From Candidatus Aenigmatarchaeota archaeon (lineage in GTDB: Archaea > Aenigmatarchaeota > Aenigmatarchaeia > QMZP01): DNA of 64,000 bases. Every line of letters begins with the position of its first letter. Positions within the stretch are counted from its first letter, which is position 1. Made by a program: the position numbers and the translations under genes. The stretch is from assembly GCA_043824495.1 (NCBI GenBank), contig JBDRSV010000024.1, forward strand, positions 91,056 to 155,055, read 5' to 3'. Below the pieces are notes generated by a model, which saw only the letters and a program-made list of their open reading frames with translations, searched no databases and was not told the DNA's origin. Shown here one piece after another: positions 877-56,991 of the stretch.

Positions 877-2388
877 ATGACTCAACAGGAAGCCCTCACA
901 AGGCTTACAAAACTCTGGGGAAAGGCTGCACTTCTCGATTCTTGTGGCCAGCTTCTGGGATGGGACGAACGAGTTTACATGCCCAGAAAGGGTGCAAAAC
1001 ATCGCGCAGATCAGCTTGCCATGGTGGCGGGAATGGTGCATGAACTCCAGGTTGATCCCAGAATCGGTGATCTTCTGGGTGCAATCAGCGGAAGTGATCT
1101 GGTTCGCGACCCGAGTTCAGACGCTGACGTCATCGTCCGCGAAATCGGCCGGGCTCACTACCGGCTGGTGAAAATGCCGCAATCGCTGGTCGAAGAGATC
1201 ACGCGCGTCACTACGCTCGCCCAGGGTGCGTGGGGCGAGGCGCGCGCCAACTCCGACTTCAAGTCGTTCAAGCCATGGCTGGAGAAAGTCATCGCACTGA
1301 AGAAGCAGGAAGCCGAAGCCGTCGGGTACAAAGACGATCCATACGATGCCATGCTCGATGTTTACGAGCCGGGCGCAACGGTCACCTCAATCGACGAGAT
1401 CTTCGCCAAGAACCGTGAAGAACTCGTGATGCTCCTCGATAAGATCAAAGGCTCGGGCAAAGGCCCCGACACCACGATCATCACCCGTGAATATCCAATC
1501 GAAGCACAGAAGACATTCGGTCACGAGGGCGCTGCCGCAATCGGTTTCGACTTCGAGCGCGGTCGTCTCGATATCACGACCCACCCCTTTTGCGCCGGCA
1601 TCGGCCCCGGCGATACGCGCATCACCACTCGTTACGATGTCCATCATTTCCCCGGCGCGTTCTTCGGTATACTGCACGAGGCCGGACACGGTATCTACGA
1701 CCAATGTCTGCCCGATGACAAGTTTGGCAGTCCGCTGGGTGAGTATATCTCGCTCGGTATCCACGAGTCGCAGTCGCGCATGTGGGAAAATATGGTCGGA
1801 CGCTCACGCGCCTTCTGGACACGCATGTATCCCAAAGCGCAGAAGGCATTCCCCAAAGCGTTAGGCGATGTTCCGGTTGACGCGTTCTATTGGGCGATCA
1901 ACGACGTCCGTCCGTCGTTCATCCGTGTCGAAGCCGACGAGGCCACTTACAACCTGCACATTCTGCTGCGTTTCGAAATGGAGCGCGCGTTCTTCTCGGG
2001 TGACTTGAAGGTCGATGACATCCCGGGCGCCTGGAACGAGAAATTCAAATCATACTTCGGCATCACCCCGCCCAATGACGCGCAGGGCTGCATGCAGGAC
2101 GTTCACTGGAGCGCGGGACTGGTTGGCTATTTCCCGACCTACGCACTTGGCAATCTCTACTCTGCGCAGTTCTTCGCCAAAGCCAACGAGGATCTCGGCG
2201 ACCTCCACGCCCAATTCGCCAAGGGCGAGTTCGCACCGCTGAAGAAGTGGCTGCAAGACAACATCCACAGCCACGGCCGCCGCTATCTCGCATGCGAGCT
2301 GGTCGAACGTGTCACCGGCAAGCCGCTCGGCTCCGAAGCGGTGATGGCGTACATGAACAAGAAGTTCGGTGAACTCTACGGCTTCTGA
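877..2388 (+). CDS. Carboxypeptidase Taq-type metallocarboxypeptidase (peptidase family M32)
   Basis: HEAGHG (HExxH), HESQSR and DVHWS...GYFPTYALG motifs. GAGG lies 9 nt upstream of ATG 877 (the track ORF starts at GTG 868). Confidence 0.9.
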   Translation: MTQQEALTRLTKLWGKAALLDSCGQLLGWDERVYMPRKGAKHRADQLAMVAGMVHELQVDPRIGDLLGAISGSDLVRDPSSDADVIVREIGRAHYRLVKMPQSLVEEITRVTTLAQGAWGEARANSDFKSFKPWLEKVIALKKQEAEAVGYKDDPYDAMLDVYEPGATVTSIDEIFAKNREELVMLLDKIKGSGKGPDTTIITREYPIEAQKTFGHEGAAAIGFDFERGRLDITTHPFCAGIGPGDTRITTRYDVHHFPGAFFGILHEAGHGIYDQCLPDDKFGSPLGEYISLGIHESQSRMWENMVGRSRAFWTRMYPKAQKAFPKALGDVPVDAFYWAINDVRPSFIRVEADEATYNLHILLRFEMERAFFSGDLKVDDIPGAWNEKFKSYFGITPPNDAQGCMQDVHWSAGLVGYFPTYALGNLYSAQFFAKANEDLGDLHAQFAKGEFAPLKKWLQDNIHSHGRRYLACELVERVTGKPLGSEAVMAYMNKKFGELYGF

Positions 2389-28942: not shown

Positions 28943-28995
28943 TCAACGGCTTGGAAACCAAGTCAAATCAACGACAATGAAAGTTGAGGTGTAAT

Positions 28996-29316: not shown

Positions 29317-29330
29317 TACTGAAGTTCACC

Positions 29331-29361
29331 GGGGATCCCGATCAATCTGGTTGGGATCCCC
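29331..29361 (+). terminator. Hairpin terminator (GGGGATCCC...GGGATCCCC)
   Basis: 9 bp perfect stem. A homologous copy lies at 30241-30273. Confidence 0.6.
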
Positions 29362-29414
29362 TCAACCTGACAATAAACTGTTGTTAAATGTTCCATTACA
29401 CCAAGGAGGGCGCA

Positions 29415-30233
29415 ATGCGTCACCAACGTTTCATCACCACAGTACTGGCACTCATGTTCTTGACTGTGCCGGCAATGTTCAGCAGTGCGGTTCTGGCCGA
29501 TCCGATTTCATCCGGAGACGGTCAAATGTATGTGGTCCAACAGGGAGATTGGTTGACGCGGCCGATCATCCCGACACTCTACTCGGATGTGTTGAAGCCA
29601 GGCGACTTGAAGAGTGCTCTCTGGATCGCTGACATCTTCGATACACTCAACATTAACATCACCCACCGCGACAAAATTCGGGCGTATGATACCATCATGG
29701 CGCCGTCATTCGCGGCGTTGAAGAAGTACAAACATCTCGCACCCGCCGACGTGGTCATCAACCTGTTCGCCACGTATGATATCGCGTCCATGGAACTTGT
29801 GGACGCCGAGTTTGTAAGAAAGCGCATCGAGGACTTTGAGGGTACTTACTGGTACAAAAATCGAGCCGCGTGGGCCCGAATTTTCGGAGTCGGTAATGGC
29901 ACGTATGTCTGCGGTGACACCGTGATGCCGTTCTCATGGTTCATGAGCTGCAATACGGACGGTAATACGGGAATGACTATCTCCATCTCCATGGACGAAG
30001 GAGATCTCACCGCAGTTCGCAAGGTTCCAGGTACACGTAACGGATTCTGGGGAGCCAGTCGTGACAATAAGTTCACATACGTGGGCTTCGGCAACGACTG
30101 GATCGATCGTTGCGACTGGAATGACGAGACCGAGAGCTGGGACATTCCACCAGTTCTGAATGAGATCGTCGGAACTCTCAACAACTTTCCATTCGTCCAG
30201 TATATGACCGTCGTCGCGTACGAACTGGAATAG
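29415..30233 (+). CDS. Hypothetical secreted protein (paralog of 30334..31659)
   Basis: Signal peptide MRHQRFITTVLALMFLTVPAMFSSAVLA, with AAGGAGGG upstream. The C-terminal half aligns with the next gene. Confidence 0.65.
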   Translation: MRHQRFITTVLALMFLTVPAMFSSAVLADPISSGDGQMYVVQQGDWLTRPIIPTLYSDVLKPGDLKSALWIADIFDTLNINITHRDKIRAYDTIMAPSFAALKKYKHLAPADVVINLFATYDIASMELVDAEFVRKRIEDFEGTYWYKNRAAWARIFGVGNGTYVCGDTVMPFSWFMSCNTDGNTGMTISISMDEGDLTAVRKVPGTRNGFWGASRDNKFTYVGFGNDWIDRCDWNDETESWDIPPVLNEIVGTLNNFPFVQYMTVVAYELE

Positions 30234-30240
30234 TTGTTAC

Positions 30241-30273
30241 AGGGGATCCTGACCAATTCGGTTGGGATCCCTT
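30241..30273 (+). terminator. Hairpin terminator, duplicate of 29331-29361
   Basis: AGGGGATCC...GGATCCCTT, followed by the same CAACTTGACAAT box. Confidence 0.55.
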
Positions 30274-30333
30274 CAACTTGACAATTAACGTAACATGTTA
30301 ACAATGAATACCAACAGAGAAGGAGAAAGTCAA

Positions 30334-31659
30334 ATGTGTAACATCATCATCCGTACCATCGTGGCACTGGCACTCATGGTTCTGATCGTGCCGGCCATCA
30401 CCAACATCGCAATTGCGGACGGAACGCCGTGTGGTCTCACCGTAGGTAATGGCAACGACATCGATCGCGACTTCGTTGCATTCCTCAACAAAGAAGGAAT
30501 CAGATGGTTAACAATCGAGGAATTCGTTGAGTGCTACTCCCAACTGATCGGTCCAGGTAGTACCATGTTGAGCACCACTCGGGGATATGGCTGGGGATAT
30601 ATTGACGTTCCTTTCAAGTTTGGCGATTCGGTCGCGTCTATAGTGAACATGGAGATCATGCCAGGCGTCCGGATCAATATGGCTTGGGATCAAGCGGTCA
30701 TCTTCTACAAATATGCGAATAATCATGGAATGCATATTCTGAAGAAGACGGAGAATGACCGTGAGGTTCCGGCCTGGAGCGGCTTGATTGATGAAGCTAC
30801 GGTGCGTCAACATGTCAACGGCTTCGAAGTGTCCGCGCAGATTCCGAGTGATGTTCTGGAATCGGATGTTGCGATTATCCGGATGCGAGATTTAAAGGAC
30901 GCCTACTTGGCCGAGAACACCGACGTTATCGAGTCTTACCTCATCGAGAAGTTTGACCTCGACGACGATTCCGAGCCGTATTCTGACAATCGGCCAAATA
31001 TATTTCATCGCAGTGGCGAAGTCTTACTGGACTCGGAGATGTTCTTCGTGTATGAAGGTCTGGAAATTCTCAATCTCATCATCAATGATCGGTGGATTGG
31101 TGTACGATTCCCCGGATCGACCTATATCCACTTCATCAACATCGGACCGAGAAAAGTCCACGACTTGAATGCCAACTTCGTCGAGACGAAAACTCCGAAC
31201 AACACCGGCGGTCAGATCAGTATCCCGCAGGATGTGATCGAAAAGATGACGTGGATCGATTCCGTCTATTCGGATAGGATGTCCCCGAATCCGATGTTAG
31301 GTTTCGGAAACGGTGAGTACCTGGCGAGCTCTGGGATCGTTTCGTTCGCGTGGGTTGCCTGGACCAACACCGATGGCAACCTCCAGTTCTATCTCAATGT
31401 TCTCCTTAACATTGATCATCAGGTGACGATCGAGACTGTGTCTCACTACGGTGGGCCTGATGTTTGGAGGGCGTGGAGTCCGAATCAGACCTGCACAGAG
31501 GTGGAGACTGGAAACGGCTGGTGTTATATTCACTGTTCCCAGTCGGAAAGTGGACCTCGAATCTGCGACTATAGACAAGCCTTGGACGATGCAGTCGCGG
31601 CGTTCAATGGCATCGATTTCTTCACGAACATGAAGGTGATCATGTACACGGTGAAGTAA
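30334..31659 (+). CDS. Hypothetical secreted protein (paralog of 29415..30233)
   Basis: Signal peptide MCNIIIRTIVALALMVLIVPAITNIAIA. GFGNGEYLASSGIVSFAWVAWTNTDGN aligns with GVGNGTYVCGDTVMPFSWFMSCNTDGN in the previous gene. Confidence 0.65.
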   Translation: MCNIIIRTIVALALMVLIVPAITNIAIADGTPCGLTVGNGNDIDRDFVAFLNKEGIRWLTIEEFVECYSQLIGPGSTMLSTTRGYGWGYIDVPFKFGDSVASIVNMEIMPGVRINMAWDQAVIFYKYANNHGMHILKKTENDREVPAWSGLIDEATVRQHVNGFEVSAQIPSDVLESDVAIIRMRDLKDAYLAENTDVIESYLIEKFDLDDDSEPYSDNRPNIFHRSGEVLLDSEMFFVYEGLEILNLIINDRWIGVRFPGSTYIHFINIGPRKVHDLNANFVETKTPNNTGGQISIPQDVIEKMTWIDSVYSDRMSPNPMLGFGNGEYLASSGIVSFAWVAWTNTDGNLQFYLNVLLNIDHQVTIETVSHYGGPDVWRAWSPNQTCTEVETGNGWCYIHCSQSESGPRICDYRQALDDAVAAFNGIDFFTNMKVIMYTVK

Positions 31660-31947
31660 AGCCGAACGCCACGAATTACTAATCCGCTCTTCTTCCCAAA
31701 GAAGTGTGGCTAGTGTGAAAGGAGTATGGGAAGGTTCCACAGTAGTAGCATCAACGGCAAAAAGTAAAAGACAAAAAAATGAAGGCCAAACCCGAGGAGG
31801 AACTCGAAGTGAAGACGAAACGAAGGTCATGCCAATATCCCATTTCGCCCATGATGGCGACTCATATTCTCATAGTCTGACCGGCCGCCGGCGACGCCAC
31901 GGGCCTCTTATATAGTTAGCGGGGCCCATCGCCAATGCAGTCAAAAT

Positions 31948-31975
31948 CCCGGGTAGGCTTCAACCCCTACCCGGG
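31948..31975 (+). terminator. Hairpin terminator CCCGGGTAGG...CCTACCCGGG
   Basis: 10 bp perfect stem. Confidence 0.6.
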
Positions 31976-31976
31976 G

Positions 31977-32028
31977 TTCCAAATGAGCTCATCTAGTTCA
32001 GATATTTTCTAGGTGGGCCCATTTGGAA
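31977..32028 (+). promoter_or_regulatory. Conserved intergenic hairpin element, copy 2
   Basis: TTCCAAATGAGCTCAT...AGGTGGGCCCATTTGGAA. Confidence 0.45.
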
Positions 32029-32092
32029 TTGTAAATGATTGTTGACTGTTCAATGAGCGTTCCGAAAGGAACATTGCAAGGAGATTTTTATC

Positions 32093-32557
32093 ATGACACA
32101 GCAGATGACATCAGTACCAGATGGTTGGGGCGGAGCAGGTGGCGACAGTCTCGGCACAGATGCACTCGAGCTTCTGAAGAAAATGGGATTCGACAATGCA
32201 ATGGGACAAGCGTTGCTCGGCAGCTTTAATCCACAGGGTTTCGTGGATGCGCTTCTCACGTTCCGACCGTTCCCGGTTGGCGGAGTCTCTCCCGAAGCTC
32301 GGAACGAGAGCAGAGAAGCTCAGTGGATTTATCTCACATGGATCTTCACCAGTCGGCAGAGAGCCTCCTTTCCCGTCGAAGGGGTGAGTGGCCTTGCTGA
32401 CTTCGTGGATATTGTCCGGAAAGCACAGAGCGATGCGGACGCGAACGAACATGCAGTTCGAATCTTGTCCAGGTTTGGGTGTGTCGATCTCCTCGTTGGT
32501 GAAGGTCGGACCTTCTTGCACACGAAAGCCATCGATTTCGCTAATTCCCAAACGTAA
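32093..32557 (+). CDS. Hypothetical protein
   Basis: 154 aa with AAGGAGA upstream. Confidence 0.55.
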   Translation: MTQQMTSVPDGWGGAGGDSLGTDALELLKKMGFDNAMGQALLGSFNPQGFVDALLTFRPFPVGGVSPEARNESREAQWIYLTWIFTSRQRASFPVEGVSGLADFVDIVRKAQSDADANEHAVRILSRFGCVDLLVGEGRTFLHTKAIDFANSQT

Positions 32558-32579
32558 GTCCGCGACATCACCAACCAAT

Positions 32580-32612
32580 CCCGGGAACAAGACAGTTCAA
32601 TCTGTTCCCGGG
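32580..32612 (+). terminator. Hairpin terminator CCCGGGAACA...TGTTCCCGGG
   Basis: 10 bp perfect stem. Confidence 0.6.
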
Positions 32613-32665
32613 TTCCAAATGAGTTCATGTGGTTTGATTTCTTGACTAGGTGGGCTCATTTGGAA
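32613..32665 (+). promoter_or_regulatory. Conserved intergenic hairpin element, copy 3
   Basis: TTCCAAATGAGTTCAT...(TTGACT)AGGTGGGCTCATTTGGAA, with an 11 bp outer stem. Confidence 0.45.
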
Positions 32666-32757
32666 TTGAGTTGTAGTAGAACCATAACCCATTCACGACC
32701 TTTTGTCGACCCTGTCTGATATCAGTTCAGGGAAGAATCTAAAGGAAGGAGAATTCA

Positions 32758-34749
32758 ATGCATTCACTCCAAGAAGTAAAAGAACACATCAAGACAACGA
32801 TGTGCAAAGCGGTTCAAGTGAATCGCTGGATGATGTGGATCGCGCTCGTCGTCATATGTATTGTGGCGATTGAGTTGTTCGTTTGGTTGCCTTCACTGCC
32901 AGAAGAGGCGCAAGACGTCCTTTCCCCATTCATAGAAGGTGGAAACAGGAATGCAGGCACGTTATTACTCCACTTCTTCTGTTTCATGGGTGCATTGGTG
33001 TCTATCTTCTTCAAAATCTTCGGTCCGATCACAAGATCTTATGATAATACACTTTTCTGGGAACTCCATCTGGGTGGAACAAAAAGGATCGGATTCCGCC
33101 TGGGTGACTGGCCTACTGGTGTGTTCATTGAAGCGGCAGACGTTCTCAGTGATTTACCAGCGAATGTCAGGAAAAGAATTCCGTGCACCCAGTATGCTGT
33201 TTCTCGAATTAAAAGCGTAACGGAATTCGACGACAGCGGTAGAGCCATCGTCCCACGGGATGAGAGTGTGTCTTCTGTGAGATTCGCCACAGTGGATGAT
33301 GGTCGACCGGGAACGCTCGACTTGGATAGGGTGTTCTCCTGGGCGCATAAGTACATCCGAGGCTATTATATCTGCCTGGCCTTTACATGTCTGTTCCTGG
33401 CTTGGCCGGTGATAACCGGCTACTCGATCGCGAGCTTCATGCACGACCTCCCGGTCCAGATCCACGACATCGCTGTTGACCCATCTCAGAATTCGACGAA
33501 AGTAATCGTCAGTTCTGATCGCAATGTCCGGTATGACTCAAGAATCGAGGTTGCAGATGACTGTGTCTGCTCCCGATTCATTCTGAACATATACCCGGCA
33601 AAGTGTGATTTCCTGGAGGAGATCTTTGCCAGTGACTATGTAATGAGAGGGTATTATGGGGCTCGAACCAACACCGGGCAGCTCTCCGAAGCAACTGGAT
33701 GGAATGGTGTCAGGCAAATCAACATCAGACAAGTTGGTGACACCATCAAGATTGTACTCGGCCTGAAAGATATGGTTGAGTACGCAATGAGTCGCTCGTC
33801 AGAGCACGGCACAAAGGATCTGGTCGTTGGTCTGGACACGCCAGTCGAGTCCAAACAGACATCGGGCGAATATTGGACCGCGAACAAGTTCGCAGATCAG
33901 TACGAAGTTCCTGACAACAATGCCCGTCGCGAGTCATCGTGTGGTGAATGGAAGTCGTTCGTCAGATTTGTATCTGCGGATAGTAACAACGTATACTTCT
34001 CTGCCAGATACGGTGGAGTGTACAGAGTGGATATGAATGGATGGATTGACACGATCGTCCCAAACAACGAGGTTGATTACTACCACACGCCAGTGAGTAG
34101 CGGTAATAAACTCGCTGGCATCCATGATGGGAATGATCTCTGTATTGTGGATATGGATACCAGAAAGGTCAAGAACGTCACCCATGGACAAATATGGGAC
34201 GTCGATTGGGTCTCGGACACCGGACTCGTGTTCTGGAGAGATCTTGATGGTGTCTGTTACTACTCCCTCTCTGCGGACTCGTCTTGGTCTTTGAACAAAA
34301 AGGCCAAATTCCCATCTGTGTGTGGGGATAAGATATTCTACCTCACACACTTACGCACCCATCGGGATGAGTGGGATTCCACACTAATCTGGGAGATGAG
34401 CCTTGACGGGTCTTCCAGAACCGTAGCTAGGTTGAAGGGAGGCTACTCACACCTGAGTATGTCTTCGGACTGCTCAATTGCAGTTCTGAAAGAGCCGTAT
34501 AGTTCTGACCGCACGTGGGTCAATAGAATCAAAACATTCTCCTTCAACGACTGCATTATGACAACACTGACGGAGTGTGGTGAGTCTCCAAGGATCACTA
34601 CAGACAATCGAATTGTTTATGTCAAGTTGTATCCTGTGGAGGGGCGTGGGGATTTCAACTCGAACTCAGAAGTCCGGATCATGGATCTGGACGGCAGAAA
34701 CGACACCTTGATTGTCAACAGAGAGGAACTCCGGAAGTTTCCGATGTAA
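32758..34749 (+). CDS. Membrane-anchored protein with C-terminal TolB-like beta-propeller region
   Basis: N-terminal TM helices. The C-terminal half has repeated short beta-strand/Asp-Gly motifs resembling PD40/WD40-like repeats (weak). Confidence 0.6.
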   Translation: MHSLQEVKEHIKTTMCKAVQVNRWMMWIALVVICIVAIELFVWLPSLPEEAQDVLSPFIEGGNRNAGTLLLHFFCFMGALVSIFFKIFGPITRSYDNTLFWELHLGGTKRIGFRLGDWPTGVFIEAADVLSDLPANVRKRIPCTQYAVSRIKSVTEFDDSGRAIVPRDESVSSVRFATVDDGRPGTLDLDRVFSWAHKYIRGYYICLAFTCLFLAWPVITGYSIASFMHDLPVQIHDIAVDPSQNSTKVIVSSDRNVRYDSRIEVADDCVCSRFILNIYPAKCDFLEEIFASDYVMRGYYGARTNTGQLSEATGWNGVRQINIRQVGDTIKIVLGLKDMVEYAMSRSSEHGTKDLVVGLDTPVESKQTSGEYWTANKFADQYEVPDNNARRESSCGEWKSFVRFVSADSNNVYFSARYGGVYRVDMNGWIDTIVPNNEVDYYHTPVSSGNKLAGIHDGNDLCIVDMDTRKVKNVTHGQIWDVDWVSDTGLVFWRDLDGVCYYSLSADSSWSLNKKAKFPSVCGDKIFYLTHLRTHRDEWDSTLIWEMSLDGSSRTVARLKGGYSHLSMSSDCSIAVLKEPYSSDRTWVNRIKTFSFNDCIMTTLTECGESPRITTDNRIVYVKLYPVEGRGDFNSNSEVRIMDLDGRNDTLIVNREELRKFPM

Positions 34750-34830
34750 GCGTGTAGTTATCATTCACACCCCGCCTGGATTCAATTCCAGGCGGGGTTG
34801 ATCATGAAATAAAGAGAAGGGGAGTGTACC

Positions 34831-35835
34831 ATGATAAAAATGTTTGGTAAACTGCTCTGCGGAGTTGCCATGGTTGTAGGCGGGTTGATCGCAGTGCTAG
34901 CGACGATCACTTTCTTCGCAGTCATTGGGAACATGGTAATCGATACTTACAAAATTGGCATGCATTTCTCTCCGTTGTTACCGACAGCCTTCATCAGCCT
35001 TTGGGTCGCCGCCGTCATGCTTTGGATTACCACCCTCGGCGCGAAAGGCCTCGGATGGTCGGTATCATGCCATTTGAAATTCAACATCGGTTACGGTTCC
35101 ATGCTGCTGGGAATCGTCGGCGTAATTGTGATCCTGGGATACTACACATATCTCTTCACCTTTGCTGACATCCCAGGACAACTGGTTGTCCTCAGTATTG
35201 ACGGTATGGAGACGTTCAGTCGGGTGGAAGTTCGTCTCATGAAAATCATGGATTTGGTGCCTCTACTATTCGCATCCATTTGCACCGGATTCACCGGACT
35301 GGCTCTCTGGTGGGGACGAATACAATCAATCCGGTTTCCGTTCTCCCGTTGGTTCGGAATCGCTGTCGCGATGATTCTTGTTATTGTCATGGCAGTGCCT
35401 GTTCTTGGTCAGGCCGATTCCACAGGCTTCACTGAGGCCAAGACCCATCTTTGTGGGATGCAGATGAATTATGCTGAATATTTCGGTGAGTTGTTCGCGG
35501 CGCGTTTCGCATCCCGGGAACTTGATATCAATATCTTCGATGCCGATGAAGAGTGGATGTGGAGAATGGTTGATTCAACATTCTACCGAAGGGATACACT
35601 CTTTGCTGTCAGAGACGGGTTCTCGTCGGTATTTAATATGGCCGAAGAGAAGGCCGAGCTTGTGGCCGCGACTGATCTGGCGAGAATTGTCGGGAAAATC
35701 AGGGGAATCCCGGAAGGTGAACGCGTTCCTTTAAGGTATTGTTTCCGTGGGGGACAGTTCATCAAGAAAGATACAAACAGAGGTTACCATGCGGTTGTAG
35801 TGCAGATTCTTCCGCTGTCTGAGAATCTGGAGTGA
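34831..35835 (+). CDS. Hypothetical polytopic membrane protein with cytoplasmic C-terminal domain
   Basis: 334 aa with about 6 TM helices, and GGGGAG upstream. Confidence 0.6.
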   Translation: MIKMFGKLLCGVAMVVGGLIAVLATITFFAVIGNMVIDTYKIGMHFSPLLPTAFISLWVAAVMLWITTLGAKGLGWSVSCHLKFNIGYGSMLLGIVGVIVILGYYTYLFTFADIPGQLVVLSIDGMETFSRVEVRLMKIMDLVPLLFASICTGFTGLALWWGRIQSIRFPFSRWFGIAVAMILVIVMAVPVLGQADSTGFTEAKTHLCGMQMNYAEYFGELFAARFASRELDINIFDADEEWMWRMVDSTFYRRDTLFAVRDGFSSVFNMAEEKAELVAATDLARIVGKIRGIPEGERVPLRYCFRGGQFIKKDTNRGYHAVVVQILPLSENLE

Positions 35836-35973
35836 AACCAACATTATCCTTTCAACATTTGATGGAGGACGGGTCATGAAACTAGTCTTAAATCGTAGGC
35901 ATCTTATAGATCCCGCCAGTGTCATTGGGCCACGCGTGAACTGGTTGTTCTCCTGAATGGCCAAGAGGTTCAG

Positions 35974-36222
35974 GTGCGTCCTATCGACCAGACGATAATT
36001 CTGATCGGACGCGATCCGGAATGTGACGTAATACTCGATAATCGCGCCGTCGACTTCTTCCATGCTCACATTGATTTCGGCGAGAATTTTGTAGTAATTG
36101 ACAACGTGTCACTCAACGGCACGTTTGTCAACGGAGAAAAGGTCGAGAAAGCGGTTCTCCGTCCTGGTGATGTGATCACAATAGCCAGGTATGAGATTCA
36201 CATCCGGTCCCTCCGGAAGTAG
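35974..36222 (+). CDS. FHA-domain protein (start uncertain; domain extends upstream of the annotated GTG)
   Basis: IILIGRDPECDVILDNRAVDFFHAHI...NVSLNGTFVNGEKV...PGDVITIARYEIHI is FHA-like. The frame is open back to 35899. Confidence 0.65.
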   Translation: MRPIDQTIILIGRDPECDVILDNRAVDFFHAHIDFGENFVVIDNVSLNGTFVNGEKVEKAVLRPGDVITIARYEIHIRSLRK

Positions 36223-36935: not shown

Positions 36936-37589
36936 ATGACAAAACCAATCGCACTATCGGCAAGTAGCATAAGACTTTTCCTAGAGTGCCCTCGATGCTT
37001 CTGGCTGCATATAAACAAGAAGGTAAGAAGGCCTTCGGGAGCTTTCCCATCGTTGCCAGCGGGTATGGACAAGATACTCAAGATACACTTTGATGAGTAC
37101 AGGGAGAAAGGCAAGATACCAAAAGAGCTAGAAGGCAAATTCAGCGGCAAGCTTTTTGGTGATACAGAAATATTGGGTGTGTGGCGTAACAACAGAAAAG
37201 GGCTAAGACATACAGACAAAAAGAGTGGCATTATTCTCATGGGAGCGTTAGATGACCTCTTTGTCACCAATAATGGACAGTTTGCACCATTGGACTTCAA
37301 AACAAGAGGCTATCCCCTCAAGGAAGACACACATGAACACTATCAGCACCAGATGGACATTTACTCATATCTTCTAGAAAAGAACAACATGAAGACTGCA
37401 GGCTATGCAATACTCATATTCTACCATCCGAAACGTGTTACAAGCACATGCAATGTTGAGTTTAATGCAGACCCTTTGAAGGTGAAGACCAGCATAAAGG
37501 ACGGTGAGAAGATATTTTTGGATGCTGTAAAATGCCTTTCGGGGAAAGAGCCCAATCCTGGCAAGGACTGTGGGTTTTGTAGATGGTGA
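36936..37589 (+). CDS. PD-(D/E)xK nuclease, Cas4/RecB-like with Cys cluster
   Basis: N-terminal ECPRCFW, central LDFKTRGY, and C-terminal C...CGFCRW cysteines as in Fe-S Cas4/AddB-type nucleases. No CRISPR array or other cas genes nearby. Confidence 0.55.
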   Translation: MTKPIALSASSIRLFLECPRCFWLHINKKVRRPSGAFPSLPAGMDKILKIHFDEYREKGKIPKELEGKFSGKLFGDTEILGVWRNNRKGLRHTDKKSGIILMGALDDLFVTNNGQFAPLDFKTRGYPLKEDTHEHYQHQMDIYSYLLEKNNMKTAGYAILIFYHPKRVTSTCNVEFNADPLKVKTSIKDGEKIFLDAVKCLSGKEPNPGKDCGFCRW

Positions 37590-37696
37590 TTCAAATCTAT
37601 TTTCAGTGTCAAACAAACCTATTTAAATAAAACAGACCACTTTCTATTGGAACTAATTAAATATATACCAACTGAAACCAATAATTAATAGTTCAT

Positions 37697-38329
37697 ATGC
37701 TTATGGACGAACGAAAACCAGAAATAAAAATTGTAGATAGGTCATTCTTACTTTACCTTCTATCGAAGGCCCAAGAAGCTAAAGCAGAATTAGGTAGAAC
37801 CTTATTACAGAAATTTGTTTTCGCTACTGAGGTTACTACGAAAGGAAAGGGTGGTGGAGGGCTAAATTATTATATTTATAAATGGAAACATGGTCCATTT
37901 AGCAAAGAGCTTGCACAAGATAGAGAAGTTCTTCTAAAAAACAATTTAATAACAGATAGTAATGAACTTACAAAAGAAGGGCATAAAATATTATCATATA
38001 TTAATCCCATTGTTGATAAAGATTCGGAATCTAAAGCCGTAATAAGTGTAATAACTAAAACTCTTTCTGGGAGAAGCTTGTCTCATATATTAGAAATTAT
38101 TTATAAGTCCGATTTTGATCTCCCAAATGGGAAAAGAATGAAAATAAAGACAATACCAGAGGGGACTCCAATGATTTTCAGATCGGAAGAACGAGATGTT
38201 AAAAACAGATCTCTCTTCACAGAATCTACGATAGAAACACTGGCCATAATGATGAATAAGGAAAAACATTCTTCTCTTAAGAAAGCCATGTCAATGCCGA
38301 TGATAGGAGAATTCAAATATGATATATGA
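37697..38329 (+). CDS. Panacea (DUF4065/SocA)-like putative antitoxin
   Basis: LLQKFVFATEV...YIYKWKHGPFSKEL resembles the KLQKLLY...W.YGP pattern. 4 bp overlap with the next ORF. Confidence 0.4.
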   Translation: MLMDERKPEIKIVDRSFLLYLLSKAQEAKAELGRTLLQKFVFATEVTTKGKGGGGLNYYIYKWKHGPFSKELAQDREVLLKNNLITDSNELTKEGHKILSYINPIVDKDSESKAVISVITKTLSGRSLSHILEIIYKSDFDLPNGKRMKIKTIPEGTPMIFRSEERDVKNRSLFTESTIETLAIMMNKEKHSSLKKAMSMPMIGEFKYDI

Positions 38330-38724
38330 TAAAAAAAAGATTTCTTGAAACTAGCGGATTTCGTGAATTCTTCCAAAGTTTGAGCGATTTCGACAAAAAA
38401 AATGTTAAAAAAATTATAGAAAAAATAAGAGAACGTGTGGAGTATAATATACTTAAACCAGATAGTTTTCTTCGCTATGAGTTTGCAGGCACGCGGAAAG
38501 AAAGAAGAGAAAGACTTAGAGTATTCTATCGCGTGTGTGAGGAATGCCGAAGACTAGGTCATGATAAAATCGAAGGCAGATGTCACGATTGCCCAAGAGA
38601 AGACGATATCATTTGTCTTATATGGGGAGACGATATTCGAGACGATGAAACATATAAAGATAAAACAATGCTTGACAGACCAGGAGCTAAAATAGATAAG
38701 AGGTCAAATGAATTCTGTGAATGA
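38326..38724 (+). CDS. RelE/ParE-like putative toxin with an inserted CxxC...CxxC zinc-ribbon
   Basis: F..FFQSL...KKIIEKIRE...LRVFYRV...IICLIWGDDIRDDETY follows the RelE/ParE pattern, with a CEECRRLGHDKIEGRCHDC insert. Confidence 0.4.
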   Translation: MIKKRFLETSGFREFFQSLSDFDKKNVKKIIEKIRERVEYNILKPDSFLRYEFAGTRKERRERLRVFYRVCEECRRLGHDKIEGRCHDCPREDDIICLIWGDDIRDDETYKDKTMLDRPGAKIDKRSNEFCE

Positions 38725-38761
38725 ATTAATTTTTTATTTTACGGCGATTTTGGCCTAAAAC

Positions 38762-38995
38762 CTATCTATCAACAGTCTCTACCCACGGCGCTTTTCTCTC
38801 AGGCAGTTTACTTCCTTTGATCACTATCTTGAATTTTAGTGGATTAGTAATATGCTTTCTGAATTCGTCTTTCCTCATTTCTGTCAAGTGTCTGACTATC
38901 TCAACAACATTGAGTCTGTATTCTTCGCTGAATCCTTCTTTTGGTGGTTTAGGGTCCTTTATTCTAATGTCTTTTAGAATTATATCTACCATCAT
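38762..38995 (-). CDS. Hypothetical small protein (last gene of the R-M operon)
   Basis: 77 aa, co-directional with and close to the two upstream genes. Confidence 0.4.
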   Translation of the reverse strand: MMVDIILKDIRIKDPKPPKEGFSEEYRLNVVEIVRHLTEMRKDEFRKHITNPLKFKIVIKGSKLPERKAPWVETVDR

Positions 38996-39018: not shown

Positions 39019-39324
39019 TTAGCTTTCAATTCGCGTGGGGAGCCCCGATTCTCTGAGGCGTTTTATACGTTCCTCATGAGTCATTTTACCTGTGCCTCTT
39101 TCTATAGAGTCCTTTATTTCTGTTTTAGATGCTTTGCATTCAGGACATTTGGTATGGACATCGAGCTTTTCTGGATGATATTTTGGTATCAATTTACTTC
39201 TTCCTGCAGCATGAGCTCTCCCTTCGCTATACCAATCAAGTGTTTTGGTAATATCAATATCCGCCTTTTTACAGAATGGGCACCTGATACTTTCTCTTGT
39301 AAATTCAGGTTTTGATCTTGTCAT
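39019..39324 (-). CDS. Zinc-ribbon protein
   Basis: CPFCKK...CPECK. Starts 6 nt after the R-M gene stop. Confidence 0.5.
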   Translation of the reverse strand: MTRSKPEFTRESIRCPFCKKADIDITKTLDWYSEGRAHAAGRSKLIPKYHPEKLDVHTKCPECKASKTEIKDSIERGTGKMTHEERIKRLRESGLPTRIES

Positions 39325-39329: not shown

Positions 39330-42056
39330 TTATATTTTCTCTATTATTTTCTTCTCTTCTTCTGTTATCCCGTATATTCTATATATATATGAATCTATTT
39401 CTTTGTCAATTCTTTGTATCTCATTTTCTATATGTACTCTTCTATCCGTTTTTTTGTCACCTATCTCATTTAAACTGTTATTCATAGAAATTATTTTATC
39501 AACTAAGTTAATGACATCTTTCTCTGTTTCTTTACTAACTAGTTTAATAGGAAATTTCTTCGTATTAGCAATTAGTATTTTTTGGAATAGCCTTTTTGAA
39601 GGATCTAAATATTTCTCTTTATGGTAAAAAGTCATTAGCTTTGAGTTTAAAATTGCTAGAATATATTTAATTTGATCAGAACTACCGTTCTTGGGTATTA
39701 TATTAAATCCTATTTGTGTGTTATATAACTCCTTTTCGGTATATCCAGCGTATATTTTTGGAGGTTTACCACTGATAATCTGTCTCACGACTATACGAGG
39801 TTTTAAGAAAAATCTCTGTTCTCTGGGAGCGCCTAGCCATTTCCCATAACTAATATATTCTGTTTGGTTCCATTTTATACCATATCTTATAATGCCTGCT
39901 CCAGATAAGAGGGGTTTGAAAGTTTCATTCTTTTTTGTTTCTGAATGAAAAACTTTATTTTTTATTTGATCTTGTGTATGACCTTTGTATTTATCATAAG
40001 GTGTTAATCCTAGCGAGAAATCGCACAAATCTATCAAAGGTTTTGTACCTTCTTCAATCTTTTTAATTATTTTACTTATAGTAGGATTTCGAGATATATT
40101 GATAATGTTATCACGACTCCAGTCTAGTTGATTAAATGTTGTGTATGTATTGCAATTTTCTTTGTCTATGAAACTTATCTTTTCTTCACTAGGATAAATC
40201 AAAAGTTCACATTTAGTACTTTTTGTTGGCTTCTTTTTTTGGTATATGAGTATTATGGTCTCTACTTTAGCCTTCTCAAAAACATTATCAGGAAGTCTCA
40301 CAATCTTTTTAAGAGTCGCTTCGTTTAATAGTAATTTTCTTATTTTTGAATATGATTGATTATATAGGATTGAATTCGGTATAATAAAACCGAAGTATCC
40401 TCCATTCTTTAGTAGACGGAAAGATTTTTCAACAAAAACTGAGTACAGATTCATTCTATTTTCTACTGTTTCATATGCCGAAAATAAATATTTAACAATT
40501 AGAGGATCTAGCTGTTTTATATCTACATACGGTGGATTACCAATTATAATATCAAAGGAACCTCCTTCAAAATCGTCTATCCATTTAAAAGAGTCTAATC
40601 CAGCAACCTCTTCAGCATCTATTAAACTGTTTCCATGACATATATGAGTATCAATCTCTGTGGGTAGTTTTCTTCCCTTTTCTGCAGCCTTCAGTAATAA
40701 ATTCAGTTTTGTTATTTCTACTGCTTTATTGTCTAAGTCCACACCGTAAAAGTTATTCTTAAGCATGTGTGTTTTAACTGAATAAATTCCCTGATAATCT
40801 AATCTCATTTGTTTTGCTTCTGGTTTTTGCATCATACTATTCAACAAATGATCAAAAGACTTTATTAAGAATGAACCAGAACCACACGCAGGGTCTAATA
40901 TTTTAATTTCTAATGGCTTCGTTTTTTTATCTGTTATTAACTCTCCTAAAGTGTTTCTAATAATATAATCTACTACATAAGTCGGTGTGTAATAAATGCC
41001 TTGTTCCTTTCTATGTAGTCTCGAATCTCTTAATTGAGCTTTCCCTGATTTCTTTTGATCAAGAATTAGACCCAAGTATTGCTCATAAACTTGACCTAGA
41101 ACATCAGCATCTATCCAGTCAAAATTATAAATGTATGTTTTGTCTTTCGATTCGTATAAATAATAAATTAAATTTTTAATTATAGATCCGTTGATATTGA
41201 TTGTATCACAATCATTATCTCTCGATATAGCAAACAAACCACTGTTATATACATCATCATATGTTTTGAATATTTCCTTCAGTTTTGTGTAAGCTTTACT
41301 ATCATGTAGGTGTTTTATATCGCTAAGTATAACACCATCAGGATTTATGTTTATGTCTTCACAGCGTCGAATAAATATAAGTCTGTCTAGAATTCTCTGG
41401 ACTATATCATCCTTCTCATCAATAGAATACTTTTTTGCATAGGTTTTCTCAATGTCGCTAGCAATTAAACTTCTTATAAGCATCAAATCATTAAGCAGGG
41501 TTTTATCGATAGAAACCCTTTTCTTCAATCTACCTTCATCTTCAGCTTTTTTAAGGATAATATTTTCTTCAAAACTGTTTTTTGATAAGAAAAGCAAATC
41601 TTCAAAGCTGTTGATATAATCTTCTGGGGTATTGAAAACTCGGAATTTATTTCTTATAGAATTTTCTTCCTCTACACAAAATATTCTTGTTTCTTCAAAG
41701 TTGGTTGATACTGCAAAAGGTACTCTCTTTGATAGTGCATATGATATTACTTGTTTATCCGCTTCTCTATCTAAAGATACACCAACCTTTTTGACTTCAA
41801 GAAAGAAAACAGTTCTGCCATTAATCTTAAAGGCGTAATCTGCGCGTCCTCTTTGACTTCCTCTATGTGCTTGAGACTGTTTATCAAAATCATTTCGCTC
41901 CCAACCAAGCAACTGAAAAAGAGGTTCAATTAATCTAGTTTCTGTATCAGCTTCTGACAGTTTTTTATATGATTCTTTGTCAGCGTTGAATTCGTTAATT
42001 AATTTTTGAATTTCCTCCTTAATGATCTCTTTATCCATATAATTAGAATGAAACAA
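39330..42056 (-). CDS. Type IIG restriction-modification enzyme (N-terminal PD-(D/E)xK nuclease fused to gamma-class N6-adenine methyltransferase and target-recognition region)
   Basis: GRADYAF...FFLEVKK (D...ExK), LDPACGSGSFL (motif I) and IIGNPPYV (motif IV NPPY). 908 aa. Confidence 0.8.
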   Translation of the reverse strand: MFHSNYMDKEIIKEEIQKLINEFNADKESYKKLSEADTETRLIEPLFQLLGWERNDFDKQSQAHRGSQRGRADYAFKINGRTVFFLEVKKVGVSLDREADKQVISYALSKRVPFAVSTNFEETRIFCVEEENSIRNKFRVFNTPEDYINSFEDLLFLSKNSFEENIILKKAEDEGRLKKRVSIDKTLLNDLMLIRSLIASDIEKTYAKKYSIDEKDDIVQRILDRLIFIRRCEDININPDGVILSDIKHLHDSKAYTKLKEIFKTYDDVYNSGLFAISRDNDCDTININGSIIKNLIYYLYESKDKTYIYNFDWIDADVLGQVYEQYLGLILDQKKSGKAQLRDSRLHRKEQGIYYTPTYVVDYIIRNTLGELITDKKTKPLEIKILDPACGSGSFLIKSFDHLLNSMMQKPEAKQMRLDYQGIYSVKTHMLKNNFYGVDLDNKAVEITKLNLLLKAAEKGRKLPTEIDTHICHGNSLIDAEEVAGLDSFKWIDDFEGGSFDIIIGNPPYVDIKQLDPLIVKYLFSAYETVENRMNLYSVFVEKSFRLLKNGGYFGFIIPNSILYNQSYSKIRKLLLNEATLKKIVRLPDNVFEKAKVETIILIYQKKKPTKSTKCELLIYPSEEKISFIDKENCNTYTTFNQLDWSRDNIINISRNPTISKIIKKIEEGTKPLIDLCDFSLGLTPYDKYKGHTQDQIKNKVFHSETKKNETFKPLLSGAGIIRYGIKWNQTEYISYGKWLGAPREQRFFLKPRIVVRQIISGKPPKIYAGYTEKELYNTQIGFNIIPKNGSSDQIKYILAILNSKLMTFYHKEKYLDPSKRLFQKILIANTKKFPIKLVSKETEKDVINLVDKIISMNNSLNEIGDKKTDRRVHIENEIQRIDKEIDSYIYRIYGITEEEKKIIEKI

Positions 42057-44027: not shown

Positions 44028-45038
44028 ATGCTTATGAAAACGAAACAACTTACTTTAGATCGAGACTGGAGCCAATATAACTTGGCCCAAACACAGGAGA
44101 AACTTCTATTCATGAGAATACTGAGTGATGCCGTTAATTCCATGAATATAGAATATACATACAAAGGCAACGGAAGACCAAGCATAGGCATAGAGGACAT
44201 GATAAAAGTCCTCGTGATAAAGGTTTTCAACGGCTTCTCGCAGAGGAGGACAATACCAGATTTGTATATGGCTAAAGGTTTAGGCTACATACCTGAAGTC
44301 CCACACTTCAATTCCATAAGCAACTACTTCAACAGCACTGAATTGACTTATTATCTTGAGCAGCTCTACAGGATATTGGCTATGCCATTCATTCCTATAG
44401 AACAGTACTTTGCTATCGATTCTACTGGTTTTGGTAAATACAATACCAATTGGACTGCCAGCAAATATAAAAACGCAAGCATGAGAAGCTTCAACAAGCT
44501 GCATATAATATGCGGAGTGCGGACAAACATAATTGTGATAGCTAAAGTGACAGATGCACACCAACACGATTCTCTTCAGTTTCCTAAGATGCTTAAGGAG
44601 ACATGCAAAATATTCACAGTAAAAGAGATCTCTGCAGACAAAGGATATCTAGCACTCTATAATGTGAATGCAGCTAAAGAATTAGGCGTAGTACCCTACA
44701 TAATGCCCAAGAAGAACACAAAGTTATATTCCAAAAAGAGATGGGTGGATGGAGAGGCATGGGATAGAATGGTACTCATGTGGAGACATAAAGAGGAAGA
44801 ATTCAGAAAACACTACCATCTGAGATCGAATGTTGAGAGCAGCTTCTCAATGATGAAGAGGAAGTTTCTTCCTTTCATAAGGAGTAAGAACCCTATTGCA
44901 CAGAAGAATGAAATTCTGGCTAAGGTTGCTTGTCACAATATATCCGTTCTTGTCCACTCAATCTTTGAATTGGGTTTAAACATAGATTTTAAAAATATAG
45001 ATTCAACAGATGAAAGGAGGGAATATTATGACGCCTGA
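44028..45038 (+). CDS. DDE transposase, IS4/IS5 superfamily (DDE_Tnp_1-like)
   Basis: FAIDSTGF, ISADKGY and the Y-x2-R-x3-E-x6-K signature (YHLRSNVESSFSMMK). Confidence 0.85.
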   Translation: MLMKTKQLTLDRDWSQYNLAQTQEKLLFMRILSDAVNSMNIEYTYKGNGRPSIGIEDMIKVLVIKVFNGFSQRRTIPDLYMAKGLGYIPEVPHFNSISNYFNSTELTYYLEQLYRILAMPFIPIEQYFAIDSTGFGKYNTNWTASKYKNASMRSFNKLHIICGVRTNIIVIAKVTDAHQHDSLQFPKMLKETCKIFTVKEISADKGYLALYNVNAAKELGVVPYIMPKKNTKLYSKKRWVDGEAWDRMVLMWRHKEEEFRKHYHLRSNVESSFSMMKRKFLPFIRSKNPIAQKNEILAKVACHNISVLVHSIFELGLNIDFKNIDSTDERREYYDA

Positions 45039-47034: not shown

Positions 47035-49560
47035 TTATTTTATGATATGAATTGCAACTGATTTTTCATATCCTTTTATGAAATCTTCTACCATGTCTCT
47101 TGCTGTAGTGTCTGAATGTTGTATTGGTGGATGCTTCATGAAATAAGCTGATGGACCTTCTAAGTAGCCTCCGATACCTCTATCTTTTGCTATTTTTGCA
47201 CAGCGAATACCATCTATTACTACACCAGCAGAATTTGGAGAATCTTCTACAGAAAGTCTGAGTTCTAAATTAAGAGGAACATCTCCGAATTTTCTTCCTT
47301 CCATTCTAATGAAACAAATCTTGTTATCTTTCTGCCATGGAACATAATCACTTGGTCCAATATGAATATTTTCTGGTTCTAGTGGTATTGGTAATTGAGA
47401 CTGAACAGCTTCTGTCTTGCTGATTTTTTTGCTCTTGAGTCTTGATCTCTCAAGCATGTTTAGGAAATCTGTGTTATGAACTAATATGTTTGAACAAATA
47501 AACCGTTCAAATGGTTTTGTGCTTATGTCATAAACATACACATCTTTTAATTTTATTTTTCTAATGTTTTTTATCTTAAGGAAGCGAGTATCGCCTGTAC
47601 ATAATTGTTTAATTTTTTCTCTTTCAAACTCACTTTTAACTTTATCCAATTGAGAAAGAACTATATGAGTTCTAATTGATCCGTGTTTGTACCACGTTGT
47701 TGATTTTATTTTCCATTTTTTCAAAAGTTTTATATTTGGTATTCGATGTGTTCCATAACGTTTTAATTTATTATTAGTATTGAGCATTGCCTTTTTCTTG
47801 TAATCTTGTAAAAATCCTACTTTATTTATGAACAATTCCATATCAATTTTTGATGATATTAATCCATGCCAAGCATACCCTAGTTTGCTGTTATATGCAG
47901 TTCTAGTGCTACTATATCTTTCCTTGAAAATTGTTGAATTTATTCCTAATCTCAAAAACAATGTCTGTATATCATTCAAAAGGTCACGAGAAACAGATGT
48001 CCATCTTATCTGTTTTCCTGTAACACCACCATCACCACTTAAATAACCTCTTAAAACTAATGATATTTGTCTATCTGATAAATTAAAAATCCATTCTGGT
48101 ATCCGTTTTGTATAAGCATTTCCCCCTAAACCAATAGCTAACTTAAATATTTTAGACAATATTTTTGAATGAATCCTTACACTAATACCGTCATTTCTAA
48201 CGCTATATCCAATATTAAATCTATCTGTTAAACTATCTATAAGGTACATACACTCAGGTTCAGCACCGCATGCAATTTCTATATTAGATGAACCTTCTCT
48301 ATCATAATTACCATCTGCAATCCATAAACCAACCAACTGTAAAAGATCATCTGTAATTGGGAATTTAACAGGAATTTTTATTTCAGGATGACCACGGACA
48401 TTTATATGACCGTCTGATACACCATCAACTAATAATTTATTACTATATGGACTTAGATCTATACTTTCAATTTCTTCTGATTTAGCATGTGGTAACACTC
48501 TAGGAACAGCAATATACGTTTCATTTCCTTTTAGTATTTTTACAGGGATTTCATTTAATATACCGTCATCGCTTAATGTAAAGACATTATGATCCCCTGT
48601 GATTTTTATTGTCCTACCTTCTTCGGTAGTTATTTCATAAATAGGTTCAGATACCTTATGTCGTATTAGTGCATTTATATCTGATAGGACAACGTTATAA
48701 TTATCATTTATAGTAAAACATCGCATATTTTCATTAATTTCTTTCATAATTACAATGTCTTTTCCATCAGATCTTTTCTTACCATAAAGCTCCAAATAAG
48801 AGTCTATCAAATCTCCAATTTTAACCCGCTTTAATTGATTGTTTATAACTACAGGAACCTCCTGATCTCCTGTTACACTGTTCCCCCCAGTATTCAATTG
48901 ATATGTCCTATCAATCTTTATTCCTCTATCAGAGAATAACTTTGTTAAAACTCTATGTGTAATTGTTGCACCTAATTGACTCTTAATATCATCACCAATA
49001 ATAGGAATTCCTTTTTCCTTGAACTTATCACCCCATTCAGGATTTGATGCAATGAAAACAGGCATACAGTTAATGAATCCAACACCTGCATCTAAACAAG
49101 CTTGTGCATAGAACTTAGTTGCTTCTTCACTTCCAACAGGCATGTAATTAATTAGCACATCAGCCTGACTATCCTTCAACACTTGAACAACATCCACATT
49201 TTTTTTCCCTGATTTTTTAAATCTATTATCTTCAGGATAATTATTCATATGATCTGCTACACCATCTAACACAGGTCCCATCTGAACTTCCACTCCAATG
49301 TGAGGAACATCCTTATAAAATATAGTAGTGTTGTTAGGCTTTGCGAATATTGCTTCCGACAAATCTTTATCTACCTTTCTCTCATCAATATCAAAAGCAG
49401 CTACTGGTTTAATATCAGATATTTTATATTCACCTAGAATATTATGCATTAGACCTGATACTGGTTTACTAGAATCTACATCTTTGTAATAGAATAATCC
49501 CTGAACAAGACTAGAACAACAATTACCAACTCCAGCAAATGCAACCTTTATTTCTGTCAT
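47035..49560 (-). CDS. myo-Inositol-1-phosphate synthase interrupted by an in-frame intein
   Basis: Exteins (227 + 145 aa): [16 protein letters not shown]...YQLNTGGN | [23 protein letters not shown]... are typical of archaeal-type MIPS. Confidence 0.85.
47473..48879 (-). mobile_element. Intein (469 aa) with LAGLIDADG homing-endonuclease domain
   Basis: Begins with Ser (SVTGDQ...) and ends ...ILVHN, followed by Thr+1. [12 protein letters not shown] and [11 protein letters not shown] are LAGLIDADG-type blocks. Confidence 0.8.
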
Positions 49561-56990: not shown

Positions 56991-56991
56991 A

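Follow-up and report, generated by a model that had tools for sequence, protein, structure and literature searches.

Positions 37,697 to 38,724 of a 64,000-nucleotide stretch of Candidatus Aenigmatarchaeota archaeon contig JBDRSV010000024.1 (the window, by which we mean that whole stretch at its full length) carry two short overlapping genes, here called A and B, and the question that they raise is whether they form a toxin-antitoxin system and, if so, of what kind. The original prediction, drawn from short motifs, saw in A a Panacea antitoxin and in B a RelE/ParE-like toxin carrying a zinc-ribbon insert. We find that A (37697..38329, forward strand, 210 amino acids [aa]), a candidate PanA-like antitoxin, and B (38326..38724, forward strand, 132 aa), a candidate RelE-family toxin, probably constitute a PanA/RelE-type toxin-antitoxin pair, and we read them in this way because of their folds, family links, conserved residues and conserved adjacency, and because a natural fusion of an A-type and a B-type protein occurs.

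A Panacea-type protein with an appended C-terminal module

The two open reading frames (ORFs) share four nucleotides (ATGA, 38326..38329, forward strand), in which the ATG of B occupies 38326-38328 and the TGA of A 38327-38329; the sequence thus reads as had been reported, and the motifs quoted for the two proteins (LLQKFVF...YKWKHGP in A; LRVFYRV, CEECRRLGHDKIEGRCHDC, and IWGDDIRDDETY in B) are all present. NCBI places the start of A at the second ATG (37703, giving 208 aa), so that the start is ambiguous by two codons. Both proteins are identical to hypothetical proteins of a Candidatus Aenigmatarchaeota metagenome-assembled genome (MAG), A to ABIJ92_04425 and B to ABIJ92_04430. The same 4-nucleotide overlap recurs in related loci L022 and L024, and it implies, as far as the sequence can tell, that translation of A and B is coupled.

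An exhaustive HMMER search with A and B concatenated as the query (E ≤ 1e-3) returned 226 relatives, including more than 130 full-length A-type proteins (~200 to 220 aa) and 11 B-type proteins. Because of these relatives, and because A/B-type adjacency recurs in dozens of independent contigs, A and B are real genes and not chance ORFs. Word-indexed homology searches returned two matches with A alone and a single match with B alone, among which there is one true relative of A and none of B. A further profile run over genome contigs gave 27 pattern matches and no relatives.

A is tied over its full length to relatives that match the Panacea domain, with E values down to 1e-27. Among 60 aligned A-type relatives, 34 match PF13274 (SocA_Panacea) at E ≤ 0.01, the best at 1.5e-10, and the hidden Markov model consensus of the A family scores 39.8 bits (E 9.7e-10, profile positions 1-109 of 113), the gathering cut-off being 25.7 bits. 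Individual relatives lie on both sides of that cut-off, with P0024 (42.5 bits) and P0010 (29.7 bits) above it and P0004, the closest relative of A, at 15.3 bits. Since A itself is sub-threshold and relatives of it exceed the cut-off, its Panacea membership is one of transitive homology, and by that route A counts as a divergent member of the family. What began as a guess from a short motif has thus gained the support of the family consensus and of many family members. The consensus match places the predicted Panacea (DUF4065) core at about residues 34-140 (37796..38116, forward strand), within which residues ~70-107 form a winged-helix-like sub-region with weak matches to winged helix-turn-helix domains.

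The AlphaFold model of A is confident (predicted local distance difference test [pLDDT] 95.5, predicted template modelling score [pTM] 0.91) and consists of helices at residues 34-49, 70-81, 93-107, 110-123, and 128-137, with a hairpin at 60-68; beyond these, residues 139-199 add a further C-terminal part built from three helices and three short strands. The Panacea core has been described as compact and mostly helical, with helices alpha1 to alpha7 and a beta1-beta2 hairpin (PMC10440598), and the helical core of the model with its one beta-hairpin is consistent with that description. In PADLOC, residues 15-138 of A match positions 5-116 of the 294-position candidate-defence model PDC-M19A (E 3.5e-6); our literature search found no description of PDC-M19.

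The C-terminal region of A (residues 152-210; 38150..38326, forward strand) resembles Phd/YefM antitoxins. Compared by hhalign with 11 Phd/YefM-like antitoxins that partner bacterial B-type toxins, the 60-sequence A alignment gave a probability of 81% (E 1.2e-5, 58 columns) and placed residues 152-210 of A in register with residues 14-72 of a 72-aa antitoxin; a three-sequence comparison of the A family with these partners gave 77%. The likeness can be followed by eye, as the Phd/YefM-type partners show the pattern '...PEGkPkaVilS...ETL.ImS.keL..Si..Ak..l..g..llS.eEvF' and the A family '...IPkGtdll...EWlETLeIllDkea.eSL.eai..akeGrllsyeEvf'. Neither the C-terminal fragment of A nor the C-terminal part of the A-family consensus matches PF02604 in a Pfam scan, and the two Phd/YefM-like partners that were scanned lie close to the cut-off of that model (29.8 bits), at 30.0 bits (L018) and 27.4 bits (L020). 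There is thus moderate evidence, at the level of sequence profiles, that A consists of a Panacea core with an appended YefM-like module. Multi-domain PanA proteins have been shown experimentally to neutralise their toxins through appended modules (Phd-C, PAD1, and ZBD), and Panacea itself has been proposed as a sensor (PMC10440598). By analogy with those proteins, the C-terminal module of A may be the element that neutralises B, a suggestion for which we judge the chances to be even.

A RelE-type protein with a Cys4 insert

The AlphaFold model of B (pLDDT 78.7, pTM 0.77) has the RelE/ParE-superfamily fold, a small alpha/beta structure in which a helical hairpin at the N-terminus packs against an antiparallel sheet, in the order b1-a1-a2-b2-b3-(residues 71-94)-b4. 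The top 37 Foldseek matches in the PDB are all RelE/ParE-superfamily toxins, the best being Mycobacterium tuberculosis RelE2 (3g5o_C, E 8.5e-4, template modelling score of 0.73 on the target). Sequence profiles point the same way. PF05016 is matched by 3 of 12 long-form relatives (best 0.0019), and 13 short-form relatives include seven that match TIGR02385 RelE_StbE (best 3e-7) and eight that match PF05016 (best 4.1e-6). A profile of the short forms run against PDB sequences retrieves RelE1 (1.8e-5) and RelE2 (3.8e-4), as well as Thermus thermophilus RelE, YoeB, and Escherichia coli RelE. A B-family profile retrieved 124 database clusters, many of them labelled by JGI as 'mRNA-degrading endonuclease RelE', Txe/YoeB, or YafQ and one labelled by NCBI as 'RelE family toxin', and several members carry a precomputed PF05016 match. 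The RelE/ParE layout first read from short motifs is upheld by profiles and structure, and the conserved residues refine it to RelE over ParE. Searches with phmmer of A and of B against PDB sequences gave no meaningful match, and two family profiles run against the PDB retrieved neither RelE nor Panacea, only weak XPA zinc-finger and winged-helix (Sso10a) matches.

Residue conservation agrees with an RNase. G55, R65, C71, C74, C86, C89, and Y110 are invariant in the B family, and L49, R57, I70, E73, and H79 are nearly so, as are R75 and R105 in a closer set of 12 sequences; in the short forms the invariant residues include R54, R62, R101, and Y105. In a MAFFT alignment with E. coli RelE, R61 corresponds to R65 of B and Y87 to Y110, the R81/R83 region falls by R105 (the R81 mapping being uncertain by one residue), and K52/K54 lie near R57/K58, so that basic and aromatic positions equivalent to K52/K54, R61, R81, and Y87 of RelE are conserved in B. 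Because this Arg/Arg/Tyr pattern sits at the RelE catalytic positions, RelE-type chemistry is favoured over that of ParE, and because these residues are invariant or nearly so throughout the family, B has presumably retained enzymatic function. We consider it likely from the sequence that B is an mRNA-cleaving RNase rather than a gyrase poison. The C-terminal tail of B (residues 111-132; 38656..38721, forward strand; pLDDT 66-73) is present in long-form relatives only, and the short forms (L010, L014, P0131, and P0132) stop just past the conserved tyrosine.

The beta3-beta4 turn of B contains a Cys4 insert of the form C71-x2-C74-x11-C86-x2-C89, with the near-invariant H79 (38536..38592, forward strand), which is predicted to be a metal site, probably for zinc. 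Its position in this turn is given by the model, by the MAFFT alignment with RelE, and by the profile alignments to RelE structures, which end at 'aiCee', the start of the insert; the alignment to RelE2 picks up beyond it at '...hR..iY'. The pattern CxxC-x(6-25)-CxxC is found in 110 of 120 retrieved B clusters; in the other 10 the complete members keep four cysteines with a variant second spacing, and two are truncated after the first CxxC. Because of this prevalence, the insert can be taken from sequence as the signature of a sizeable RelE subfamily ('CEECR' RelE), in part automatically annotated already, with hits in archaea (Bathyarchaeia, Methanosaeta, Odinarchaeia, Halobacteria, Methanolliviera, and ANME-1) and in bacteria (Anaerolineae and Nitrospirae MAGs). 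The insert had been called a zinc ribbon and unusual for the fold. The two CxxC pairs are indeed invariant, but the ribbon fold is in doubt, as the model shows, at moderate confidence, short helices at residues 71-76 and 79-83 (pLDDT 69-88) in place of zinc-ribbon hairpins, and the matches of the insert to XPA, RecR, and rubredoxin-like zinc modules are weak; 'Cys4 metal-binding insert' is the safer description of what is a predicted feature. None of the solved structures that were retrieved aligned over the insert, and with 110 of 120 clusters it is no singular oddity.

Linkage and exchange of partners

In all eight first-round loci with upstream sequence to test, an A-type gene immediately precedes the B-type gene: the two follow one another in the window, L001, L003/L004, L005, L006, and the truncated L007, and they are fused in L009. 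More distant A-type genes, in L010 and L014, also precede B-type genes, which phmmer had missed. By blastp, A and B are the only genes common to the different loci and their neighbours differ, so that the mobile module is the two-gene unit. The fusion, P0088 (292 aa, L009:4001-4879), joins in frame an A-type N-terminal part and a Cys4 RelE-type C-terminal part in one ORF; it is known from a single contig and could be either a fused toxin-antitoxin protein or a sequencing artefact.

Genome, metagenome, and viral collections together supplied 80 distinct B-type genes, of which 51 adjoin an A-type gene. The A-type gene lies directly upstream on the same strand in 32 and directly downstream on the opposite strand in 19, the convergent genes often sharing a 4-nucleotide stop-stop overlap. 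A Phd/YefM-type antitoxin of ~72 to 90 aa is found upstream instead in 12 loci, and the remaining 17 have no recognised partner, three of them being without upstream sequence. Replacement of one antitoxin by an unrelated one is a typical feature of type II toxin-antitoxin systems, and because the partners of B swap between A-type and Phd/YefM antitoxins, B is marked independently as a toxin.

The convergent arrangement was inspected by eye in L027, L034, and L081. It occurs in L016, L027-L035, L041, L044-L047, L076, L077, L081, L085, L087, L090, L091, and L107; in L027, for example, B is at 1226..1594 on the forward strand and A at 1591..2244 on the reverse. No other small gene lies upstream of B in the convergent pairs, and the layout implies that A and B would have separate promoters there. 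One convergent pair (L107:2944-3941) is on a 34.6-kb predicted viral contig (IMGVR_UViG_3300022221_000374), possibly a provirus, and resembles the Bathyarchaeota MAG locus L016, with equal gene lengths, a matching 4-nucleotide overlap, and the same 48% identity to the query (over query residues 10-108). The A-type protein with the strongest PF13274 score, P0024 (L012:2501-3148 and L013:2264-2911), has no B-type neighbour and adjoins a convergent gene for an uncharacterised 161-aa protein; some A-type proteins may be solo or pair with other toxins.

We propose that A and B form an operon of two genes encoding a type II toxin-antitoxin system of the PanA/PanT kind; the genes would be co-transcribed and, through the ATGA overlap, translationally coupled. 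Bacterial and archaeal RelE proteins cleave mRNA in the ribosomal A site, and B most likely does likewise, although we infer both its toxicity and its RNA target; a Cys4 module of ~22 residues, probably metal-binding, would take the place of its beta3-beta4 turn. A would be the cognate antitoxin, with its C-terminal ~60 residues most likely wrapping around and blocking B and its Panacea core most likely acting as a scaffold or sensor. Within a variable part of the genome, the pair would serve for addiction or for defence by abortive infection.

Several observations weigh against assigning A and B to a PanA/RelE-type pair. Neither protein meets any curated Pfam or NCBIfam threshold singly; even at E ≤ 10, A has no PF13274 match in a direct Pfam scan and B has no RelE/ParE match in Pfam or NCBIfam. 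A Foldseek search of the A model against the PDB gave no significant match, the best being 7yk3_B (probability 0.87, E 0.17). The homology of the C-terminal module is moderate (77 to 81%), and the tail of A is among the more divergent of the family. The residue mapping depends on the E. coli RelE sequence that was used, the numbering of which agrees with the published residues K52, K54, R61, R81, and Y87 and with the 'R81A/R83A' designation of PDB entry 2kc8. Finally, the 19 convergent pairs among the 80 loci are atypical of co-regulated type II systems. As to 7yk3_B, which is suggestive only, this chain comes from the DarTG complex of M. tuberculosis, and Panacea-like domains may occur in PDC-M19A and DarTG systems.

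Genomic setting and competing readings

The pair lies in a part of the window that is rich in defence and mobile elements. Upstream are a stand-alone FHA-domain protein of 82 aa (35974..36222, forward strand; Pfam FHA 7.1e-18), two small membrane-like ORFs, and a Cas4-like PD-(D/E)XK nuclease (36936..37589, forward strand). Converging on the pair from downstream are a 77-aa ORF with no matches (38762..38995, reverse strand) and a zinc-ribbon ORF of 101 aa with two CxxC pairs and weak zinc-ribbon matches (39019..39324, reverse strand), both of which lie downstream of, and on the same strand as, a gene for a 908-aa type IIG Eco57I/MmeI-like restriction-modification enzyme (39330..42056, reverse strand). 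Beyond this gene come a helix-turn-helix protein and, 5 kb downstream of the pair, a DDE_Tnp_1 transposase of an insertion sequence (IS) element (44028..45038, forward strand). A myo-inositol-1-phosphate synthase of 841 aa (47035-49560, reverse strand) contains an intein (Intein_splicing 5.3e-20) that carries a LAGLIDADG homing-endonuclease domain (LAGLIDADG_3 6.4e-18). The GC content of the pair (~35%) is that of the window baseline (31 to 36%). The composition changes sharply 1.7 kb upstream, near 36.0 kb, at the boundary with an island of ~49% GC (28-36 kb), and the FHA gene is placed exactly at this boundary. Islands of ~48 to 50% GC occupy 28000-36000 and also about 1-3000 and 18000-24000, and 56000-60000 is at ~42%; these islands could be horizontally acquired DNA or reflect a chimeric MAG assembly.

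Putative control elements flank the pair. The AT-rich region before A (37619..37693, forward strand) is a candidate archaeal promoter and operator, with TATA-like boxes at 37619-37629 (CTATTTAAATA) and 37653-37663 (CTAATTAAATA) and a TATATA at 37662, followed by a weak, imperfect palindrome (AACCAATAATTAATAGTT, 37676-37693) between the boxes and the start codon of A that may serve as an operator; boxes and palindrome alike could be chance, as they are inseparable from it in AT-rich DNA. Six nucleotides past the B stop starts a T-rich run (TTTTTTATTTT, 38730..38740, forward strand), which from what is generally known of archaeal termination we presume to be an oligo-T terminator.

A variable neighbourhood of this kind fits a toxin-antitoxin or abortive-infection role but does not prove it. 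It is possible, though we remain doubtful, that the pair works above all in antiviral abortive infection, with the Panacea core sensing a viral cue and freeing or activating the toxin, a reading that is compatible with toxin-antitoxin biochemistry. This reading is favoured by the position of the pair, with a Cas4-like nuclease on one side, a type IIG enzyme on the other, and an IS transposase nearby, and also by the PDC-M19A match of A, by the sensory role proposed for Panacea (PMC10440598), and by the A-B fusion, which has a counterpart in defence proteins such as CapRel (mentioned in PMC10440598), where toxin and antitoxin are likewise fused. Similar gene types also flank related pairs, with a Cas4-like nuclease in L003/L004 (L003:2118-2750) and an MmeI-type restriction-modification gene in L005 (L005:3841-6381). 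However, the idea that nuclease and type IIG enzyme form a conserved system with A and B was rejected by blastp, as only A and B are common to the loci: between the flanking nucleases blastp detects no homology, and between the restriction-modification enzymes it finds a weak methylase match (24.6% over 236 aa). The defence-type genes are thus not homologous between loci and make no conserved multi-gene system; they look from sequence like a recurrent defence-island context, and toxin-antitoxin pairs of any sort are commonly located together with such genes in variable islands. The PADLOC match, moreover, is limited to the Panacea-like N-terminal part of the model, B has no PADLOC match, and just one relative is on a predicted viral contig.

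A second proposal, which we consider unlikely, takes the Cys4 RelE toxins and chimeric Panacea/YefM-like antitoxins as a distinct, mostly archaeal lineage in which the insert is functional, Panacea is a sensor, and convergent genes are workable. On this proposal the insert might adapt the toxin to archaeal ribosomes or mRNA or act as a redox or metal switch, and the Panacea core might sense virus or stress and control release of the toxin. To our knowledge, independently transcribed, convergent genes are hardly known for type II systems.

It is quite improbable that B is a ParE-type DNA gyrase poison and not an mRNA endonuclease. The Pfam model matched by its relatives is named ParE_toxin (PF05016), but this model, as we understand it, spans the whole RelE/ParE superfamily despite its name. 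ParE is also listed among Panacea partners (PMC8832971). However, the best structural and sequence matches of B are RelE and YoeB, the NCBIfam matches (RelE_StbE, YafQ, and Txe/YoeB) are all mRNases, the Arg/Arg/Tyr pattern fits the RelE catalytic positions, and the bacterial partners are of the Phd/YefM type, as for YoeB and RelE.

More improbable still is that A neutralises B indirectly, in the manner of the type VI SocA-SocB system, as an adaptor delivering B to a protease and not as a stoichiometric inhibitor. SocA is the founding Panacea-domain antitoxin (PMC8832971), as the Pfam family name SocA_Panacea recalls, but direct complexes were found for the tested PanA-PanT pairs (PMC8832971, PMC10440598), A has a Phd/YefM-like module typical of direct binders, and the natural A-B fusion fits direct contact. 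The least credible reading takes A for a winged-helix transcription factor and B for a small zinc-finger nucleic-acid-binding protein derived from a former toxin. It could draw on the weak winged-helix matches in A and the weak XPA, RecR, and rubredoxin-like matches of the B insert, but the winged-helix-like part falls inside the Panacea domain, conservation of the RelE catalytic-type residues in B is complete or almost so across the family, and partner swapping with Phd/YefM antitoxins is classic toxin-antitoxin behaviour.

Relation to known systems

A PanA/RelE-type toxin-antitoxin pair is a kind of system that is already known, because pairings of Panacea antitoxins with RelE-superfamily toxins have been catalogued, MqsR-like (n = 90) and ParE among them (PMC8832971). 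The pair shares with PanA-PanT systems (PMC8832971, PMC10440598) the two-gene layout with a Panacea antitoxin upstream of an unrelated toxin, the RelE-superfamily toxins among the listed partners, a multi-domain antitoxin of the type that in PanA proteins neutralises through appended modules, and occurrence in archaea. It differs in that A is too divergent to match PF13274 singly, that its module lies at the C-terminus and is similar to a complete Phd/YefM unit and not to Phd-C helices, PAD1, or ZBD, that the toxin is a Cys4-insert RelE, and that about a quarter of the related A-B pairs are convergent.

With RelBE and YefM-YoeB systems, including the archaeal aRelE proteins (Pyrococcus horikoshii 1wmi and Methanocaldococcus jannaschii 3bpq), B has in common the toxin fold, the order of secondary-structure elements, and the Arg/Arg/Tyr residues at the RelE catalytic positions; the antitoxin-then-toxin order with overlapping codons is likewise shared, and bacterial members of the Cys4 subfamily pair with Phd/YefM antitoxins. 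In contrast to these systems, a Cys4 insert of ~22 residues replaces the beta3-beta4 turn (about 80 of the 132 residues of B align with the retrieved RelE structures, none of them over the insert), and A is a 210-aa protein with a Panacea core as against the small RelB or YefM. MqsR-MqsA and the Burkholderia fungorum MqsR:PanA pair also combine a RelE-superfamily RNase toxin with zinc in the system, and Panacea-containing variants exist; however, the zinc site of MqsRA is in the antitoxin (the MqsA ZBD) and the Cys4 site of our pair is in the toxin, and MqsR is ribosome independent and belongs to a different sequence family.

We found no description of a Cys4 insert in a RelE fold, of an antitoxin combining Panacea with a YefM-like module, or of a frequent convergent layout; for the Cys4-insert RelE the literature search was of incomplete coverage, and no such protein was found in the main texts of PMC8832971 and PMC10440598, in both of which 'zinc' has 0 occurrences. 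PLSDB plasmids gave no tblastn match for B or for a short-form relative.

The conceptual gain is incremental, because A and B are recognisable as a type II toxin-antitoxin pair. Experiments have hardly begun to address toxin-antitoxin biology in DPANN and other uncultured archaea, and the module is both concrete and widely distributed. It would allow tests of whether a metal-binding insert affects target recognition or regulation of a RelE-type nuclease, of whether Panacea antitoxins are a classical neutralising module (here YefM-like) bolted onto a sensor core, as has been proposed for bacterial PanA proteins, and, as a third question, of what lies behind the convergent layout in a quarter of the pairs. 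We note that current curated profiles miss A- and B-type proteins, and it follows that archaeal toxin-antitoxin censuses undercount them.

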